This document shows positions 21,223 to 26,127 of a DNA stretch of 64,000 bases, piece after piece (positions within the stretch are counted from its first letter, which is position 1; each line of letters begins with the position of its first letter). Below the pieces are notes generated by a model that did not search any database, was not told where the DNA came from, and saw only the letters and a list, made by a program, of their open reading frames with translations. Both the position numbers and the translations under genes were made by a program. This stretch comes from an uncultured Verrucomicrobiae bacterium (GTDB lineage: Bacteria; Acidobacteriota; Terriglobia; Terriglobales; Acidobacteriaceae): NCBI GenBank assembly GCA_963717535.1, contig OY970344.1, forward strand, positions 35,306-99,305, given 5' to 3'.

Positions 21223-21741
21223 CTAATCCAGGGAGGCGAAGGTCTCTGTCAGGTCGACGTGTATTGGGGTGTTCGGCACAGTGAGTTGGGTTGGATCGGC
21301 TTCATGGAGGCCCGTGGCGTTGTAGGTGAAGGCGGCTCGGTAGATGGGATCGATGAGCCAGATGTTCTCGACACCCATAGCGAGGTAATCGGCGAGAACG
21401 AGCTTGGTGCGGCTGAAGCGGTCATCCGGAGAGAGCACCTCGACACAGATGAGTGGAGGAGTGGTGGTGACGGCCTCGCGGGGTGCGTCCGCACGGAGGA
21501 TGGCTACGTCACAGACGCGGACCTGGTTGGGGCGAACGCGGATGCGTTGTTCTACGACGGGGTCGGTGGCCCACTGCTTCGCATTCAGGGTGAAGATGTG
21601 GAAGAGCCAGCCTTGGATCTTGCCGTGTTCGTAGGTGCCCACGTTTCGCGCCTCGAGTCCCCCGTCCACGAAGTCGAGATCCGGCTTGTAACTGGTGTGA
21701 AGGTACTGGTCAATGGAAAGCGGGAGGGGAGCGGTCGCCAT
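21223..21741 (-). CDS. Uma2/DUF820 family restriction-endonuclease-like protein
   Basis: YKPDLDFVDG.LE, DVAIL...PLICVEVLSPDD and YLAMGVENIWLIDP. Confidence 0.88.
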   Translation of the reverse strand: MATAPLPLSIDQYLHTSYKPDLDFVDGGLEARNVGTYEHGKIQGWLFHIFTLNAKQWATDPVVEQRIRVRPNQVRVCDVAILRADAPREAVTTTPPLICVEVLSPDDRFSRTKLVLADYLAMGVENIWLIDPIYRAAFTYNATGLHEADPTQLTVPNTPIHVDLTETFASLD

Positions 21742-21783: not shown

Positions 21784-23265
21784 CTAAGCCACAACACCCG
21801 CGAGACTCGATCGGAGTGGGGCGAGGCGCGTCTGTTCGAGGTCGTCGCGGTAGAAGAGGTTGTAGGTGTCGAAGGGGATGAGGCGCTGGGCGTCGGGGTG
21901 GGCGATGTGGATGCAGGTCTTGCGGATGGAGCGCAGGTCGAAGCTGTCGGCGTCGATGAACTGAACGATGAGGATGCGGAAGAGGTTTTGGTACGAGAGG
22001 TTTTTGGGACTCAGGACCTGTGGCAGGCAGCATAGGAGATCGCGAAGGGTGCTGGCCTGGGACTGCGGCGAGTGATTGGTGGAAAAGAGCTTGAAGAGCC
22101 CTTCTTTCACCGGGTTTGCGGCGGCTTTGGCGAGCAACTCCGGGTTCCGGGCGAGGTGCGCGCGGATGCCGCTGTCCTGTTCATAGATGATGGTGTTGGC
22201 CGCGCCGTTGATGAGTACCTCGGGCGGAATGAGGCTGGTGAGTGGGGTGACGTTGCCTGCGAGTTTCAGGGCGTAGCCCATGGCGAGCGAGTCGGGGTGG
22301 CACGGAACGGGGATGATGTCTTCGGGCTTGAAGACGGAGGTCTGCTCGAGGATGCGACGCCGGACTTCGGTGAGGGTGAGTCGGTGCTGGGCGGGGTCGT
22401 AGCCGCCGAGGCGCCCGGCCTGTTGAACCGGCTGAAAGGTGACGCCCCGGATGCAGGGCTGTGTGAGAGCGAAGTCGACTATGGCGCCGAGTTCGGTGTC
22501 GTTGACGCCGCGCTCGACGGTGACGACGAGGGTCGTGGAGATGCCGAGTTCGTTGAGGCGGGCGAGGGCACGTTCGCGGATGCTCCGCAGGTCGGCGCCG
22601 CGGAGCTGCATCAGCGGATCGCGTTTGAGAGAGTCGAACTGGAGGTAGAGTTCGAAGCGGGGCATGTACGTGGCGAGGCGCTGGGCAAAGGCCGCGTCGG
22701 TGGCGATACGGATGCCGTTGGTGTTGACCATCAGGTGCTTGATGGGGCGCTGTTTGGCGGCGTCGAGGACCTCGAAGAACTGCGGATGGATGGTGGGTTC
22801 GCCGCCGGAGATCTGGACGATGTCAGGCTCCATCTCGTTGCGGACGATGGTGTCGAGCATGCGTTCGATCTGCTCGAGTGAACGATGCGTGGTGCGATGG
22901 GTGCCGCTTGAGGCGTAGCAGATGGGGCAGTCGAGGTTGCAGACGTCGGTGATCTCCAGCAGCGTGAGGCAGGAGTGCTGCTCGTGGTCGGGGCAGAGGC
23001 CGCAGTCGTAGGGGCAGCCGTATTTCACGGGTGTGTTGAAGTGCTGCGGCATCTCGGGTGGCTTGAGGAAGACTTCGCGGCAGCGGCGGTAGTAGTCGAC
23101 GTCGTCGGCCATGAGGATGCGCTGGAAGCCGTGGGTGGGGCAGCGCTTGAGCATGTAGACGTGATTGTCTTCGAAGACGATCTTGGCATCGACGCGGCGG
23201 AAGCAGGTCGCGCAAAGGGAGACCGCGGTGTCGTAGAAGAGGTAGGGGCGGGTGGGTGCGGTCAT
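21784..23265 (-). CDS. Radical SAM enzyme of the tetraether synthase (Tes/GDGT-MAS, MJ0619)-like family
   Basis: From ATG 23265: rubredoxin-like C18xxC21...C42PTH45, auxiliary GC84PYDC88GLC91PDH, radical SAM C109NLDC113PIC116, SGGEPT, NTNG, YLQFD, and C-terminal KTCIHIAHPD..LIPFDTYN. Confidence 0.85.
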   Translation of the reverse strand: MTAPTRPYLFYDTAVSLCATCFRRVDAKIVFEDNHVYMLKRCPTHGFQRILMADDVDYYRRCREVFLKPPEMPQHFNTPVKYGCPYDCGLCPDHEQHSCLTLLEITDVCNLDCPICYASSGTHRTTHRSLEQIERMLDTIVRNEMEPDIVQISGGEPTIHPQFFEVLDAAKQRPIKHLMVNTNGIRIATDAAFAQRLATYMPRFELYLQFDSLKRDPLMQLRGADLRSIRERALARLNELGISTTLVVTVERGVNDTELGAIVDFALTQPCIRGVTFQPVQQAGRLGGYDPAQHRLTLTEVRRRILEQTSVFKPEDIIPVPCHPDSLAMGYALKLAGNVTPLTSLIPPEVLINGAANTIIYEQDSGIRAHLARNPELLAKAAANPVKEGLFKLFSTNHSPQSQASTLRDLLCCLPQVLSPKNLSYQNLFRILIVQFIDADSFDLRSIRKTCIHIAHPDAQRLIPFDTYNLFYRDDLEQTRLAPLRSSLAGVVA

Positions 23266-23501
23266 TTGCGTAATCGGCCCAAGATGAGTCGGGCAATAGA
23301 GAGCAGGCCGATGATGAGCATGCCGAGAAGGCTGCTCCAGAAGAGGAAGGCACCAGTTTCGATGACGATTGGGGATACGCGCTCGTTGCCGATCAGGACA
23401 CCGATGCCACATGTGCCCACGCCAATACCCGCACCAATGCTGCAAAGCACAAGCGCTTTGGTGAAGTCGACGGCATCACTCTTCGCGAACTGCTCGAACA
23501 T
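23262..23501 (-). CDS. Small two-helix membrane protein with G-T-C-G-I box (79 aa)
   Basis: Its TGA overlaps the radical SAM ATG (ATGA at 23262-23265). Two hydrophobic segments. Aligns with the 23564-23860 protein. Confidence 0.75.
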   Translation of the reverse strand: MFEQFAKSDAVDFTKALVLCSIGAGIGVGTCGIGVLIGNERVSPIVIETGAFLFWSSLLGMLIIGLLSIARLILGRLRK

Positions 23502-23563: not shown

Positions 23564-23860
23564 TCATGGCTTGCCGGACTTGAATCTGTCGAGCAGGACT
23601 GCGGTCAGCAGGCCCAACAGCGAGAAGCAAAGGCCCAACGCACCGACAAGCATTCCAAGAAGCTCGAGCGCACCCAGTGCGACCAGCACCACGCCTGCCG
23701 TGTTCCTGGCGGGGCTCGAGGAGGTGCCTCCGCGGGCGAGCCCGAACAAGTTGAAGCTGACGTAGTTGATGCCGCAAAGGCCAGCGGAGATCAGGAGAGC
23801 GACACCGAACAGAGTCGTGGCGCGGAACCAGACGTCGCGGTCGGTCCTGGAGCTAGACAT
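23564..23860 (-). CDS. Small two-helix membrane protein with G-L-C-G-I box (98 aa)
   Basis: Its ATG overlaps the Lgt-like stop (ATGTCTAG). Two hydrophobic segments. Paralogous to the 23262-23501 protein. Confidence 0.78.
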   Translation of the reverse strand: MSSSRTDRDVWFRATTLFGVALLISAGLCGINYVSFNLFGLARGGTSSSPARNTAGVVLVALGALELLGMLVGALGLCFSLLGLLTAVLLDRFKSGKP

Positions 23861-24608
23861 GCTCCAGTCCTTGCTCGGCGACCGCAGCGCCCTCAGGGCG
23901 ACGATCCGAGACCGCGTTGAACGCGACGAAGAAGAGGCCGAGCAGGCAGCCCCATTGAATCAGGTTCATGCCAAGGACCGTGGGTTGAGGCTTCAGAAAA
24001 TCGATCAGCAGGCGCCAGGTAAGGTAGGCGGCCATGAAGAGGCGAAACGTCGAGCCGTTGGTGTGGGAACGGCGGCTCTGCCAGTGGAGAAGGCCAGCGA
24101 GTGTCGTGAGGAAGACAATCTCATAAAGCTGGGTGGGGTGTCGGGGGATGCCGTCACCGAAGTCGACAGCCCACGGGAGCGTGGTGGGTTTGCCGAACGT
24201 ATCGTCCGCCAAGCCGGCGAGAAAGCAGCCGATGCGGCCGACGGCCACGCCGATGCAGAGAGGGAGGGCGAAGAGGTCGCCCGTGCGGGTGCGGATGTTC
24301 TGGATCTTTTTGGTGAACTCGACGACCAGCCAGCCGCCAAGCAGGCCACCGACGATGGTCTTGCCACCGCCGGGCAGCAGGGCTTGCGTCCAGGTGATGT
24401 GAATGCGGGGTGCCTGCTCCAGTAGACCGAGCAGACGGCTGCCGAGGAGTGCGCCTACTGTTGCTGCGGCGATGATGCTCCAGCGCTGCTGCTGGCTGAG
24501 CACGTCGCCGGCGCTACGGCGTCGACGTTTGTAGGTCGCGAAGCCAAGTACGTAGCCCAGCGTCTCAAAAAGAGGGTGAAGCGCGGGAAGGGGGTGCAGG
24601 TGAAGCAC
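23853..24608 (-). CDS. Prolipoprotein diacylglyceryl transferase-like protein (divergent Lgt paralog)
   Basis: GRIGCF, FGKPTTLPWAVDF, RHPTQLYE and Y..WR..IDF. The SFHGG motif is replaced by KTIVGG. Confidence 0.88.
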   Translation of the reverse strand: MLHLHPLPALHPLFETLGYVLGFATYKRRRRSAGDVLSQQQRWSIIAAATVGALLGSRLLGLLEQAPRIHITWTQALLPGGGKTIVGGLLGGWLVVEFTKKIQNIRTRTGDLFALPLCIGVAVGRIGCFLAGLADDTFGKPTTLPWAVDFGDGIPRHPTQLYEIVFLTTLAGLLHWQSRRSHTNGSTFRLFMAAYLTWRLLIDFLKPQPTVLGMNLIQWGCLLGLFFVAFNAVSDRRPEGAAVAEQGLEHV

Positions 24609-24645: not shown

Positions 24646-26127
24646 TTACTCCAGCGCGTACATGGCGAGGCCGCTCAGGAGCTTGGGGTAGAAGTCGGTG
24701 GACTTCTGGGGCATGACTTCGAGGTTGAGGGAAATATCCCTCATCTGGTCGAGGGTCACTGGCTTGATTAAGAACGCAACATCGGCATTGCCGGAGCCAA
24801 CTTGTTGGAGAGCGTCGTGCGCTTCCCGGACGTAGCGGACATGGTTGCCGCCGCGAACAGTGTCCTCGTTGAGATGAAGGAGCTGTTCGAGGGCGAGTTT
24901 GTGTAGCTGGACGACGTTGAGCTGCTGCTGACGGGGGCTCAGGCCGGCGGTGAACTGGGCGACCGCGTCGGGCTTCGGCGTGAGCAGGAAGTCGCCGTCG
25001 CGGGTGGCCGCGATGAAAGCTACGCCGGCAGCCGCGTTCAGACGGTTGAGCAAGGTGCTTTCCCCGGGGAAGTGACCGTCGGGGGTCGAGGGGATCTCTT
25101 CGACTGTGAAAAGGCGCTCGGCTTGCTCCGCGAAGTGCCGCCCATTGAAGTGGGGCAGGCCGAAGACGACGCGGTGGGTGGGGAGGATGGTGATGCCGGG
25201 CGCGTCCATATTGACGAAGGTCATCATCATGGCTGCTTCAGGAAAGGGCGGTTGGGGCAGGCTTGTGCCTTCCTTGCCGGGGATCCCGGATTCACCACGC
25301 GGGCTCCGGGACGCAGTTCCCACCTCGTTGTTTAGCTCCGGTCGAGAGGACACATCCGAAAACGTGTCCGACAGCGGGGCGTCCTTGGGAGCAGGTGCGG
25401 GCTCGAAGCCTAGCTGTTGGGCTCGTTCGTGCATGTAGGAGACGGAGGTCTCATAGCGGTGGTGGCCGTCAGCAATGATGAGCGATTTGTCGCTCATGGT
25501 TTCAAGGATTTTGCCGATAAGGTCTGAGTCCGTCAATTTCCAGACGCGATGAACGACGTTATATTCGTCGATGATCTCGAGGTCGGCGGGCCGGGGCTGG
25601 CCTGTGGGGGAATCGAAGATGAGGTGTTCCGCAGTGAAGGAGGGGTCGGAGTAGAGCATGTAGATCTGTTCCGGATAGGCACGAATCGCTTTGAAGAGAG
25701 CGAGGCGGTCGGATTTGTGCTTGGGGAAGGTCTGCTCGTGGCGATAGACGACGTGTTCGGCGTAGTCATAGAGATGGCCCAAAGCGATGAAGCCGCGACG
25801 TTCGCGCACCTCGTCGGTGCCGGGCACGGTGTAGGTCTGCGAGTAACCGTAGAGCGCAGGCTCTGACTCTTCGCGAAGGATGCCTTCACTGCGCCAGGCG
25901 GCGAAGGTTGCCGCCGCGCGGGTGTAGACGTTTTTCTGATCATTGTCGGCGGGCTCACGCTTGCCCAGGACGACGCGGATGAGGTTGTAAGGGCTCTTCG
26001 CGTAGTAGTTCGCCTGCATTTCCGGCGAGATCTTGTCGTAGGGCTGAGTGACCACATCAGCCATGTTGACGCGGGCGGTGTCATAACGGAGGGCGCGGAA
26101 GGGATACAGGCGAGCCATTGATGTCAT
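24646..26127 (-). CDS. DUF1015 family protein
   Basis: PFRALRY, PYD.IS, RHEQT, IADGHHRYET, ILPTHR and MPQKSTDFYPKLLSGL. Confidence 0.88.
   Translation of the reverse strand: MTSMARLYPFRALRYDTARVNMADVVTQPYDKISPEMQANYYAKSPYNLIRVVLGKREPADNDQKNVYTRAAATFAAWRSEGILREESEPALYGYSQTYTVPGTDEVRERRGFIALGHLYDYAEHVVYRHEQTFPKHKSDRLALFKAIRAYPEQIYMLYSDPSFTAEHLIFDSPTGQPRPADLEIIDEYNVVHRVWKLTDSDLIGKILETMSDKSLIIADGHHRYETSVSYMHERAQQLGFEPAPAPKDAPLSDTFSDVSSRPELNNEVGTASRSPRGESGIPGKEGTSLPQPPFPEAAMMMTFVNMDAPGITILPTHRVVFGLPHFNGRHFAEQAERLFTVEEIPSTPDGHFPGESTLLNRLNAAAGVAFIAATRDGDFLLTPKPDAVAQFTAGLSPRQQQLNVVQLHKLALEQLLHLNEDTVRGGNHVRYVREAHDALQQVGSGNADVAFLIKPVTLDQMRDISLNLEVMPQKSTDFYPKLLSGLAMYALE

Follow-up and report, generated by a model that had tools for sequence, protein, structure and literature searches.

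An accessory Lgt-family paralog encoded with a Tes-like radical SAM enzyme and small cysteine-containing membrane proteins in an acidobacterial genome

We analysed a 64,000-nucleotide stretch of DNA (hereafter the window) from contig OY970344.1 (assembly GCA_963717535.1, positions 35,306 to 99,305, forward strand). On its minus strand the window carries an ORF with a GTG start that encodes an Lgt-family protein of 251 aa, followed by two genes for small membrane proteins (microproteins) and a gene for a radical SAM enzyme. The genes and motifs discussed below are as follows.

23853..24608 (-), Lgt-family paralog (here called LgtL), 251 aa, seven predicted TM helices
24564..24578 (-), TM1 motif H11-P-L-F-E15, standing at Tyr26 and Tyr30 of E. 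coli Lgt
24333..24371 (-), GGGKTIVGGLLGG, aa 80-92, the arm-2/TM3 motif (GGGKTIVGG) in place of GGMSFHGG, with K83 at M100 and V86 at H103
24222..24239 (-), GRIGCF, aa 124-129, the Lgt signature motif with R125 at R143 and C128 at N146
24120..24143 (-), RHPTQLYE, aa 156-163, before TM5 (E. coli H196-E202)
23988..24026 (-), YLTWRLLIDFLKP, aa 195-207, the TM6 motif Y195-x3-R199-x3-D203-x2-K206-P (E. coli Y235, R239, E243 and R246)
23564..23860 (-), microprotein of 98 aa, with G-L-C-G at aa 27-30 (nt 23771-23782) after a basic N-terminus and a hydrophobic stretch of about 15 residues
23262..23501 (-), second microprotein of 79 aa, with G-T-C-G at aa 29-32 (nt 23406-23417)
21784..23265 (-), partner radical SAM enzyme of the Tes/GDGT-MAS family, 493 aa from the ATG at 23265

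The start of the 98-aa microprotein gene overlaps the stop of LgtL by 8 nt, and the stop of the 79-aa microprotein gene overlaps the radical SAM start by 4 nt (ATGA). The upstream DUF1015 gene (24646-26127) and the downstream Uma2 gene (21223-21741) were considered as further parts of the locus and rejected, since neither recurs in any of 80 related loci, retrieved with an 11-row alignment, or in the 9 loci found in the phylum sample.

A preliminary description, made from the sequence alone, had noted a short Lgt paralog that lacks the SFHGG His motif but keeps the Arg-based motifs, with Asp in place of the usual Glu in the last of them. This observation holds, and every motif that it named is present in the translation. 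The protein matches the Pfam LGT profile (PF01790) at 101 bits over residues 14-230, against a cut-off of 24.9. An AF2 model (pLDDT 93.9) has seven TM helices, and its only clear structural match is E. coli Lgt (PDB 5azb), with a Foldseek E-value of 8e-8 (TM 0.63) and a VIA-align Z of 14.3 over 226 residues (rmsd 4.1 Å), compared with Z 6.0 for the next row. The model, together with positive-inside reasoning, predicts an N-out, C-in topology with the conserved polar residues on the outer-leaflet side, as in E. coli Lgt. However, the periplasmic head is much smaller, with about 23 residues between TM4 and TM5, and the N-terminus is short. The protein also stays below the NCBIfam equivalog cut-off for Lgt (TIGR00544), with 56.9 bits against 118.9.

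Alignment with E. coli Lgt (HMMER and MAFFT) shows which parts of the active site are kept. G124, R125, G127, G139, Y195 and R199 stand at Gly142, Arg143, Gly145, Gly154, Tyr235 and Arg239, and each is kept in 95-96 of 96 representatives of the clade to which the protein belongs; Arg143, Gly145, Gly154, Tyr235 and Arg239, which are essential in E. coli (PMC4728403), are kept in 96 of 96. V86 stands at His103, a position occupied in the clade by V, L, I or A in 94 of 96 and never by H, Y, W or F. K83 stands at Met100 (K, R or Q in 94 of 96). Further differences were not noted in the preliminary description. H11 stands at the essential Tyr26 (His in 96 of 96), E15 at Tyr30 (Glu/Asp in 94 of 96), C128 at the essential Asn146 (Cys in 96 of 96) and K206 at Arg246. 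No acid stands at Glu151, the conserved acid being D135, two residues on. The overall pattern is not due to chance, as it holds in 94-96 of the 96 representatives. At the positions of the buried hydrogen-bond network, D203 is a conservative replacement of Glu243, although Asp is not fixed in the clade (D 58, E 36 of 96), and K206 at Arg246 is Lys in 93 of 96. R246K does not complement in E. coli (PMC4728403), yet the charge is kept, so these observations do not settle whether the network is preserved.

The preliminary description inferred from the missing His a specialised transferase with changed acceptor specificity, not the housekeeping Lgt. This interpretation is partly supported: the conclusion of a specialised, non-housekeeping protein is supported, the reasoning from the lost His is weak, and the changed acceptor is plausible but not shown. 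His103 is confined to Proteobacteria, while Firmicutes have Tyr and Actinobacteria Trp (PMC13251419). Apart from one proteobacterial-type copy and one other, every acidobacterial Lgt-family protein that we tabulated lacks it (Tyr or Phe) and has Cys at the position of Asn146 within a GRxGC motif. We therefore rejected both the missing His and the GRIGC motif as marks of this paralog.

A search for a second canonical lgt in the genome, together with an Lgt phylogeny, had been proposed in advance as tests of this inference, which would have been contradicted had the gene been the only lgt in the genome and rescued lgt depletion. The genome has two other PF01790 genes. Neither reaches the TIGR00544 cut-off (70 bits and no match, respectively), so there is no second canonical lgt in the strict sense. 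One of them (at 711396-712334 of contig C1 in our genome set) is genus-core and present in 21 of 24 congeners, whereas LgtL is present in 4 of 24 congeners and in 9 of 150 other genomes of the phylum sample. The core paralog shares with LgtL the GRIGC motif with Cys at Asn146, the absence of His at 103, Arg143 and Arg239, but it keeps Glu243 and Arg246, has Phe at positions 26 and 103 and Ser at 235, and lies next to hpt and aroA-like genes rather than next to a radical SAM gene. The other PF01790 gene has lost both catalytic Arg. Lsp and Lnt are each present once, and in five other carriers of LgtL a higher-scoring PF01790 gene is always present too. In the phylogeny LgtL forms a separate clade (SH-aLRT 100) with a stem of 1.1 substitutions per site, and the core paralog falls in a different one. 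In agreement, E-values in the phylum sample are bimodal, at 1e-44 or better and then, after a gap, at 1e-21.

The clade is tightly associated with the radical SAM gene. The two genes are adjacent in 8 of 8 assessable phylum loci, and a Tes-like radical SAM gene lies directly downstream on the same strand in 69 of 75 assessable loci. Six loci with 4 kb of downstream sequence lack it, as does one genome of the same order. A natural fusion also exists, in which LGT is followed by the Zn ribbon and Radical_SAM domains in a protein of 733 aa. Named records with the module include Paracidobacterium acidisoli 4G-K13 and Occallatibacter savannae AB23. The partner in the window contains Pfam Zn_ribbon_HMPTM and Radical_SAM domains, shares the N-terminal zinc ribbon and the radical SAM core with the tetraether synthase Tes/GDGT-MAS (MJ0619, PDB 7TOL/7TOM), and matches 7tol with an E-value of 2.4e-66. 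It is, however, below both NCBIfam cut-offs, with 307 bits against 490 for TrsS and 262 against 450 for Tes (NF045702). Orthologues of the partner (64-72% identity) occur in exactly the genomes that carry the paralog. The other Tes homologues of the phylum are only 30-38% identical to it and, with one divergent exception (38% identity), lack the Lgt paralog. No Lgt partner is described for archaeal Tes in the papers that we read.

The two microproteins match no Pfam or NCBIfam family, and tblastn with them found nothing in distant loci; homologues were recovered there only by position, hydrophobicity and motif, and then by phmmer. Homologues of the 98-aa protein lie in the same position in other loci, and the 79-aa protein also has homologues in other loci. 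G-L-C-G occurs 44 times in 13,317 aa of TM ORFs in the gap between the two enzyme genes, and 0 times in 35,994 aa of TM-like ORFs elsewhere in the same loci. In a 17-sequence alignment G, L, C and G are the only invariant columns. In this genome only the two adjacent ORFs match the microprotein profile, the 79-aa protein being the second-best match. Where the two enzyme genes abut, small TM proteins follow the radical SAM gene, with a Cys motif near the C-terminus (L-L-N-A-G-C-W-G type). The paralog-microprotein pair persists in five loci that lack the radical SAM gene. Complex prediction of LgtL with the 98-aa microprotein, run with two alignments, gave a score of 0.13, below the mark of 0.32, which is neither support for binding nor evidence against it; expression of the genes was not examined. 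Some related loci also carry a protein of about 185 aa with a canonical lipobox.

Taken together, we favour, with moderate confidence, the view that LgtL is a specialised, accessory member of the Lgt family and one part of a conserved membrane module formed by the Lgt paralog, one to four small membrane proteins with a single invariant cysteine, and a Tes/GDGT-MAS-like radical SAM enzyme. The analysis itself establishes the Lgt fold, the retained Arg143/Arg239/Tyr235 pocket, the separate clade, the patchy distribution beside a core paralog, the adjacency, co-occurrence and occasional fusion with the radical SAM gene, and the locus-specific microproteins; the chemistry and the acceptor are our inference. 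In this view, LgtL, like Lgt, would bind a glycerophospholipid at the outer-leaflet side of the membrane and transfer the diacylglyceryl group to a thiol, which would belong not to ordinary prolipoproteins but to the Cys of the co-encoded microproteins. That Cys lies about 15 hydrophobic residues after a basic N-terminus, as in a lipoprotein signal peptide, but with Leu at -1, and signal peptidase II would probably not cut there. The radical SAM partner, located on the cytoplasmic side (at the C-terminus of the paralog in the fused forms), would then, or beforehand, alter the lipid tails. The housekeeping lipoprotein pathway of this organism most likely runs on the genus-core paralog.

There are several reasons for caution. 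No activity, lipid or modified peptide has been observed, neither transfer from phosphatidylglycerol to a lipobox Cys nor complementation of lgt depletion was assayed, and the acceptor is inferred from gene neighbourhood and a motif only. The motif, with Leu at -1 and Gly at -2, is not a canonical lipobox, and the invariant Cys could instead be the target of the radical SAM enzyme. Mutants of E. coli Lgt at H103, Y26 and N146, and R246K, fail to complement (PMC4728403; PMC13251419), and since several positions of LgtL carry residues that inactivate the E. coli enzyme, a loss of transferase activity is not excluded. The remodelled Tyr26 and Met100 positions contact the donor phosphatidylglycerol in E. 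coli Lgt (PMC4728403), which points to a changed donor at least as much as to a changed acceptor. The placement of H11 and K83 in the front cleft rests on sequence alignment alone, as the model was not superposed on 5AZC residue by residue. A more far-reaching form of our reading, which is tentative, is that the module makes a kind of lipidated membrane protein not described so far, in which the paralog attaches a glycerolipid to an intramembrane Cys within an uncleaved, non-canonical G-L-C-G box of a dedicated microprotein, and the Tes-like enzyme tailors or couples the lipid tails from the cytoplasmic side, for example into a membrane-spanning anchor.

An alternative that is possible, though less well supported, is that LgtL is the lipid-handling subunit of the radical SAM enzyme. 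It would bind, and perhaps cleave, a membrane glycerophospholipid and hand the lipid to the Tes-like partner, or take it from the partner, to give a modified lipid such as a tail-coupled or membrane-spanning lipid; no protein would be lipidated, and the microproteins would be accessory, scaffolding or regulatory parts. The fusions, the fixed gene order, the membership of the partner in the family of a lipid tail-to-tail coupling enzyme and the changes at the donor site (Y26 to H, M100 to K) are in line with this view. In addition, E. coli Lgt slowly hydrolyses phosphatidylglycerol to diacylglycerol in crystals (PMC4728403), and bacterial Tes homologues have been proposed as makers of membrane-spanning lipids (PMC8941075). 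However, this does not explain why one Cys in a fixed G-L-C-G context is the only invariant feature of the microproteins, nor why the paralog-microprotein pair persists without the radical SAM gene. Moreover, the Lgt active site faces the outer leaflet, while the radical SAM domain is cytoplasmic, as judged from the C-terminal fusion and the topology of the model.

It is unlikely that LgtL is a pseudoenzyme, that is, a seven-helix membrane anchor or substrate-recognition subunit that recruits the soluble radical SAM enzyme to the membrane and to the microproteins, with the radical SAM enzyme alone modifying the invariant Cys or nearby residues. The residues at H103, Y26, N146 and R246 do differ from those required in E. 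coli, the fusion and the TIGR00544 score would fit, and the gene of this genome that has lost both catalytic Arg shows that pseudoenzymes arise in the family. Nevertheless, the residues invariant across the clade are exactly those of the catalytic pocket, together with a new invariant His/Glu/Lys/Asp set, a pattern typical of an active enzyme with an altered site and not of a decaying one, and the pair occurs without the radical SAM gene in five loci. Least likely is a redundant or condition-specific isozyme of the housekeeping Lgt that acts on ordinary lipobox prolipoproteins in a coincidental neighbourhood: although the catalytic Arg pair is kept, the housekeeping role of the other paralog is itself inferred and a lipobox protein occurs in some related loci, the gene is absent from 20 of 24 congeners and about 94% of the phylum sample, its neighbourhood is conserved across phyla with fused forms, and its clade has its own invariant residues.

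More than one PF01790 gene in a genome is not new in itself. Actinobacteria have second Lgt homologues (Streptomyces Lgt1/Lgt2 and the second Mycobacterium smegmatis homologue), in which one copy has diverged at residues essential in E. coli; those paralogs are not tied to a radical SAM enzyme or to dedicated microproteins, and their relationship to the present clade was not tested. We found no published description of the module, and searches for Lgt together with brGDGT, tetraether synthase or radical SAM returned no paper, in a literature collection that leaves out most subscription journals. Lgt is treated as a single-function, essential, housekeeping enzyme and as an antibiotic target. 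LgtL represents a large clade (253 clusters at 50% identity with E ≤ 1e-30, and more than 555 loci among species-representative genomes) that keeps the catalytic pocket but has rebuilt the substrate-entry side, and its ties to a radical SAM enzyme of the tetraether-synthase family and to dedicated Cys microproteins point to a second use of the Lgt chemistry. The analysis also shows that loss of His103 is not a safe marker of non-housekeeping Lgt outside Proteobacteria. Finally, the finding bears on bacterial Tes homologues, which are discussed as makers of branched tetraether (brGDGT) and other membrane-spanning lipids used as palaeoclimate proxies. The Tes-like subfamily partnered with LgtL is distinct from the other acidobacterial Tes homologues, although we did not establish whether the Edaphobacter aggregans homologue discussed for brGDGT belongs to it. 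This subfamily may not act on bulk lipids at all, so Tes-homologue counts should not be read as brGDGT potential without separating the two.

The minus-strand ORF 23853-24608 starts with GTG and encodes 251 aa, and its translation carries every motif listed in the preliminary description, in which an Lgt paralog without the SFHGG His motif but with the Arg-based catalytic motifs had been noted. That observation is confirmed. The motifs are GGGKTIVGGLLGG (aa 80-92), GRIGCF (aa 124-129), RHPTQLYE (aa 156-163) and YLTWRLLIDFLKP (aa 195-207). The protein matches the Pfam LGT profile (PF01790) at 101 bits, but stays below the NCBIfam Lgt equivalog cut-off, with 56.9 against 118.9 bits. An AlphaFold2 model built on 96 relatives is confident (pLDDT 93.9) and shows seven long helices. 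Its only clear structural match is E. coli Lgt (PDB 5azb), with a Foldseek E-value of 8e-8 and a VIA-align Z score of 14.3 (rmsd 4.1 Å over 226 residues), while the next row has a Z score of only 6.0.

We next aligned the protein with E. coli Lgt to map the residues of known importance. In E. coli, mutants at Y26, H103, R143, R239 and R246 (including R246K) do not complement (PMC4728403), and N146A is non-functional (PMC13251419).

Table. Residues of E. coli Lgt and their counterparts in the 251-aa protein.
R143: R125
G145: G127
G154: G139
Y235: Y195
R239: R199
H103: V86
N146: C128
Y26: H11
Y30: E15
M100: K83
E243: D203
R246: K206
E151: no acid at this position; a conserved Asp lies two residues on (D135)

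The absence of the His is not what makes this gene special. His103 is stated to occur in Proteobacteria, with Tyr replacing it in Firmicutes and Trp in Actinobacteria, and is described as 'essential but poorly conserved' (PMC13251419). When Lgt-family proteins from about 35 genomes of the same phylum were tabulated, the common forms had Tyr or Phe at position 103 and Cys at position 146, in a GRxGC motif. The exceptions with His at 103 are a proteobacterial-type copy in a congener (L045) and one protein from genome G115 (L049), and L045 alone keeps Asn146. The interpretation that had been drawn from the lost His, that of a specialised transferase with changed acceptor specificity distinct from the housekeeping Lgt, is supported only in part, and on grounds other than the His.

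A search for a second canonical lgt in the same genome had been suggested as a check on this interpretation. The genome (4.03 Mb, one contig) holds three PF01790 genes, so the gene is not the only member of the family, but none of the three reaches the equivalog cut-off and, in the strict sense, there is no second canonical lgt. The two other paralogs, both outside the window, are:
G000:C1:711396-712334 (locus L001:1420-2361, + strand), the best-scoring PF01790 gene of the genome (126 bits), a genus-core gene and the likely housekeeping Lgt
G000:C1:3099151-3099828 (locus L003:1420-2265, - strand), the third PF01790 paralog (47 bits), next to an RluD-like pseudouridine synthase gene
The first of these (L001) is itself atypical, as it has Phe at Y26 and H103, Cys at N146 and Ser at Y235, although it keeps R143, R239, E243 and R246, and it scores only 70 bits on TIGR00544 (cut-off 118.9). 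The second (L003) has lost both catalytic arginines, with Glu at R143 and Ala at R239; it is conserved in a congener (L057) and is probably a pseudoenzyme. One same-genus genome (G153) carries an additional proteobacterial-type Lgt (L045, G153:C1:108769-109515) with GMSSHGG and GRxAN motifs, which scores 229 bits on PF01790, groups with E. coli Lgt in the tree described below and is possibly a horizontal acquisition; the genome studied here lacks it.

An Lgt phylogeny had also been called for. In a maximum-likelihood tree of 56 Lgt-family proteins, the protein and its orthologues form one clade of 27 rows, supported by an SH-aLRT of 100 and set on a stem of 1.1 substitutions per site. This clade stands apart from E. 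coli Lgt, the core paralog type, the widespread Cys/Cys type and the degenerate type. It also has its own constellation of invariant or nearly invariant residues. In the E. coli structure, Tyr26 and the backbone of Met100 contact the glycerol backbone of phosphatidylglycerol at the front-cleft site, whereas Arg143, Tyr235 and Arg239 form the pocket where the C3-O bond is cleaved (PMC4728403). We infer, from sequence alignment alone and without superposition of coordinates, that in this clade the cleavage pocket is kept and the substrate-entry side is rebuilt.

Table. Residues in the clade at positions of E. coli Lgt, counted over 96 representatives.
Y26: His, 96
Y30: Glu/Asp, 94
M100: Lys/Arg/Gln, 94
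H103: Val/Leu/Ile/Ala (never H, Y, W or F), 94
N146: Cys, 96
R246: Lys, 93
R143, G145, G154, Y235 and R239: kept, 96 each

The distribution of the gene is that of an accessory gene. Orthologues (63-66% identity) occur in 4 of 24 other species of the genus, in 1 of 16 genomes of a sister family and in 9 of 150 other genomes sampled across the phylum, where the E-values jump from 3e-44 to 1e-21 between orthologues and other Lgt-family genes. These tallies include one unpublished genome (G024), which has only a weak match and on which no specific claim rests. In contrast, the L001-type paralog is present in 21 of 24 congeners at 64-82% identity. Signal peptidase II (Lsp) and Lnt are each present once, although the genome has no canonical Lgt; the lipoprotein pathway therefore exists, and it most probably runs on the core paralog. 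In five other carriers, a higher-scoring PF01790 gene is always present as well. Within the clade, the branching does not follow the family labels of the genomes; for example, a same-family genome (G075) groups with a genome of another family (G050). Together with the patchy distribution, this suggests horizontal spread of the module described next.

The paralog is the first of four consecutive genes on the minus strand, given here in order with the two flanking genes:
24646-26127 (-), DUF1015 protein, upstream of the module
23853-24608 (-), the Lgt paralog
a 98-aa membrane protein (-), whose start overlaps the stop of the paralog by 8 nt
a 79-aa membrane protein (-)
a 493-aa radical SAM protein (-), with an ATGA stop/start overlap
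21223-21741 (-), Uma2-family putative endonuclease, downstream of the module
The DUF1015 and Uma2 genes do not recur beside the module in other genomes and are not conserved neighbours. The radical SAM protein has the HMPTM-type zinc ribbon and the Radical_SAM domain; it scores below both the TrsS and the Tes cut-offs, and matches the tetraether synthase GDGT-MAS (7tol) at E 2.4e-66.

The pairing of the paralog with the radical SAM gene is conserved. It was found in 8 of 8 assessable loci from the phylum sample, in 3 of 4 loci from near relatives and in 69 of 80 loci from a scan of species-representative genomes; five of the other eleven run off their contig, so that 69 of 75 are assessable, and the radical SAM gene is always downstream on the same strand. 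Orthologues of the radical SAM protein at 64-72% identity occur in exactly the sampled genomes that have the paralog, while about thirty other genomes have Tes homologues at only 30-37% identity and lack the paralog. One genome (G090) pairs the paralog with a 38%-identity homologue. A natural fusion of LGT, Zn ribbon and Radical_SAM also exists (733 aa), and a 38%-identical member of the clade is again adjacent to its radical SAM gene. By record labels, the 80 loci are mostly Acidobacteriota, with a few from Planctomycetota, Eisenbacteria, a Coleofasciculus cyanobacterium and a Vulcanimicrobiota MAG; single contigs in MAGs labelled Gammaproteobacteria or Halobacteriales may be binning errors.

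The 98-aa and 79-aa membrane proteins share a G-x-C-G-I motif, and we then tested this across loci. In the 52 loci where the two enzyme genes are at least 150 nt apart, the gap holds one to four small TM ORFs. The exact motif G-L-C-G occurs 44 times in 13,317 residues of these ORFs, in 26 loci, and a looser G-x-C-[GSAFT] occurs in 37 loci, whereas TM-like ORFs in all six frames elsewhere in the same loci have no G-L-C-G in 35,994 residues. The consensus around the Cys is [VA]-[LF]-x-[LVI]-[SAG]-[LF]-G-L-C-G-[LV], and in a 17-sequence alignment G, L, C and G are the only invariant columns. The 98-aa protein finds about 25 of these ORFs by phmmer at E < 1e-3; they are therefore a real, fast-evolving family. 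Within the genome studied here, a profile of the family finds only the two ORFs next to the paralog among 34,368 ORFs. In layout, a basic N terminus and about 15 hydrophobic residues precede the Cys, as in a lipoprotein signal peptide, but Gly stands at -2 and Leu at -1, where the canonical lipobox has [ASTVI] and [GAS] (PMC12462473).

In the 17 loci where the two enzyme genes abut, the arrangement is different. In 12-13 of the 15 with enough downstream sequence, as judged by eye, small TM proteins follow the radical SAM gene instead. This second type of microprotein (L100, L103, L105, L106, L110, L111, L114, L125, L129, L131, L133 and L136, each a separate locus) has about 95-115 aa and 2-3 TM helices, with a conserved Cys near the C terminus in an L-L-N-A-G-C-W-G-type motif, and often occurs in two tandem copies. 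Other contents are also seen. Many Terracidiphilus/Occallatibacter-type loci (L078, L081, L083, L085, L086, L090, L095, L096, L099, L101, L108, L113 and L118) carry, between the microproteins and the radical SAM gene, an extra protein of 180-220 aa with a canonical-looking lipobox (…G-I-L-A-C-G-A-C-F-L-P-P…). In some loci (L117, L121, L126, L130, L139, L140, L143 and L144) the gap between the two enzyme genes holds, instead of microproteins, proteins of 280-350 aa with 6-8 TM helices and a Cys after the first helix, for example G-L-S-S-C-V-G-F or L-L-S-L-C. Finally, in five loci (L072, L073, L080, L087 and L091) the paralog is followed by a microprotein although no radical SAM gene lies within 4 kb; in L091 the paralog is split over two overlapping frames, possibly by a frameshift, and in L080 it carries an insertion.

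While the fold match, the clade, the distribution and the gene associations are results of the analysis, the mechanism is inferred. Positive-inside reasoning on the model, together with the C-terminal fusion to a cytoplasmic radical SAM domain, gives the Lgt topology, with the N terminus out and the C terminus in, and all conserved polar residues on the outer-leaflet side. The microprotein Cys would lie in the outer half of its first helix, which is where Lgt meets the lipobox Cys. A complex prediction of the paralog with the 98-aa protein left their association undecided and is not used here. We think that the paralog most likely transfers a diacylglyceryl (or related) group from a phospholipid to this Cys. 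The product would probably not be cut by signal peptidase II, because of Leu at -1. In this view the radical SAM enzyme would act, before or after the transfer, on the lipid tails, which reach the bilayer midplane, from the cytoplasmic side.

Among the alternatives, the paralog may handle lipid for the radical SAM enzyme without any protein being lipidated, which fits the fact that the remodelled residues are donor-site residues. It may instead be a pseudoenzyme anchor, but the invariance of exactly the catalytic-pocket residues argues against this. Distribution and context argue against a redundant housekeeping isozyme.

Literature searches found no paper that connects Lgt-family proteins with Tes-like enzymes, and the papers on bacterial Tes homologues that we read do not mention an Lgt neighbour. 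By fold, Pfam profile and catalytic Arg pair, the protein belongs to the Lgt family. However, it does not reach the equivalog score, lacks the H/Y/W103, Y26 and N146 features and does not have the distribution of a core gene. We therefore regard it as a new variant within the Lgt family that forms a distinct subfamily, and not as Lgt proper.
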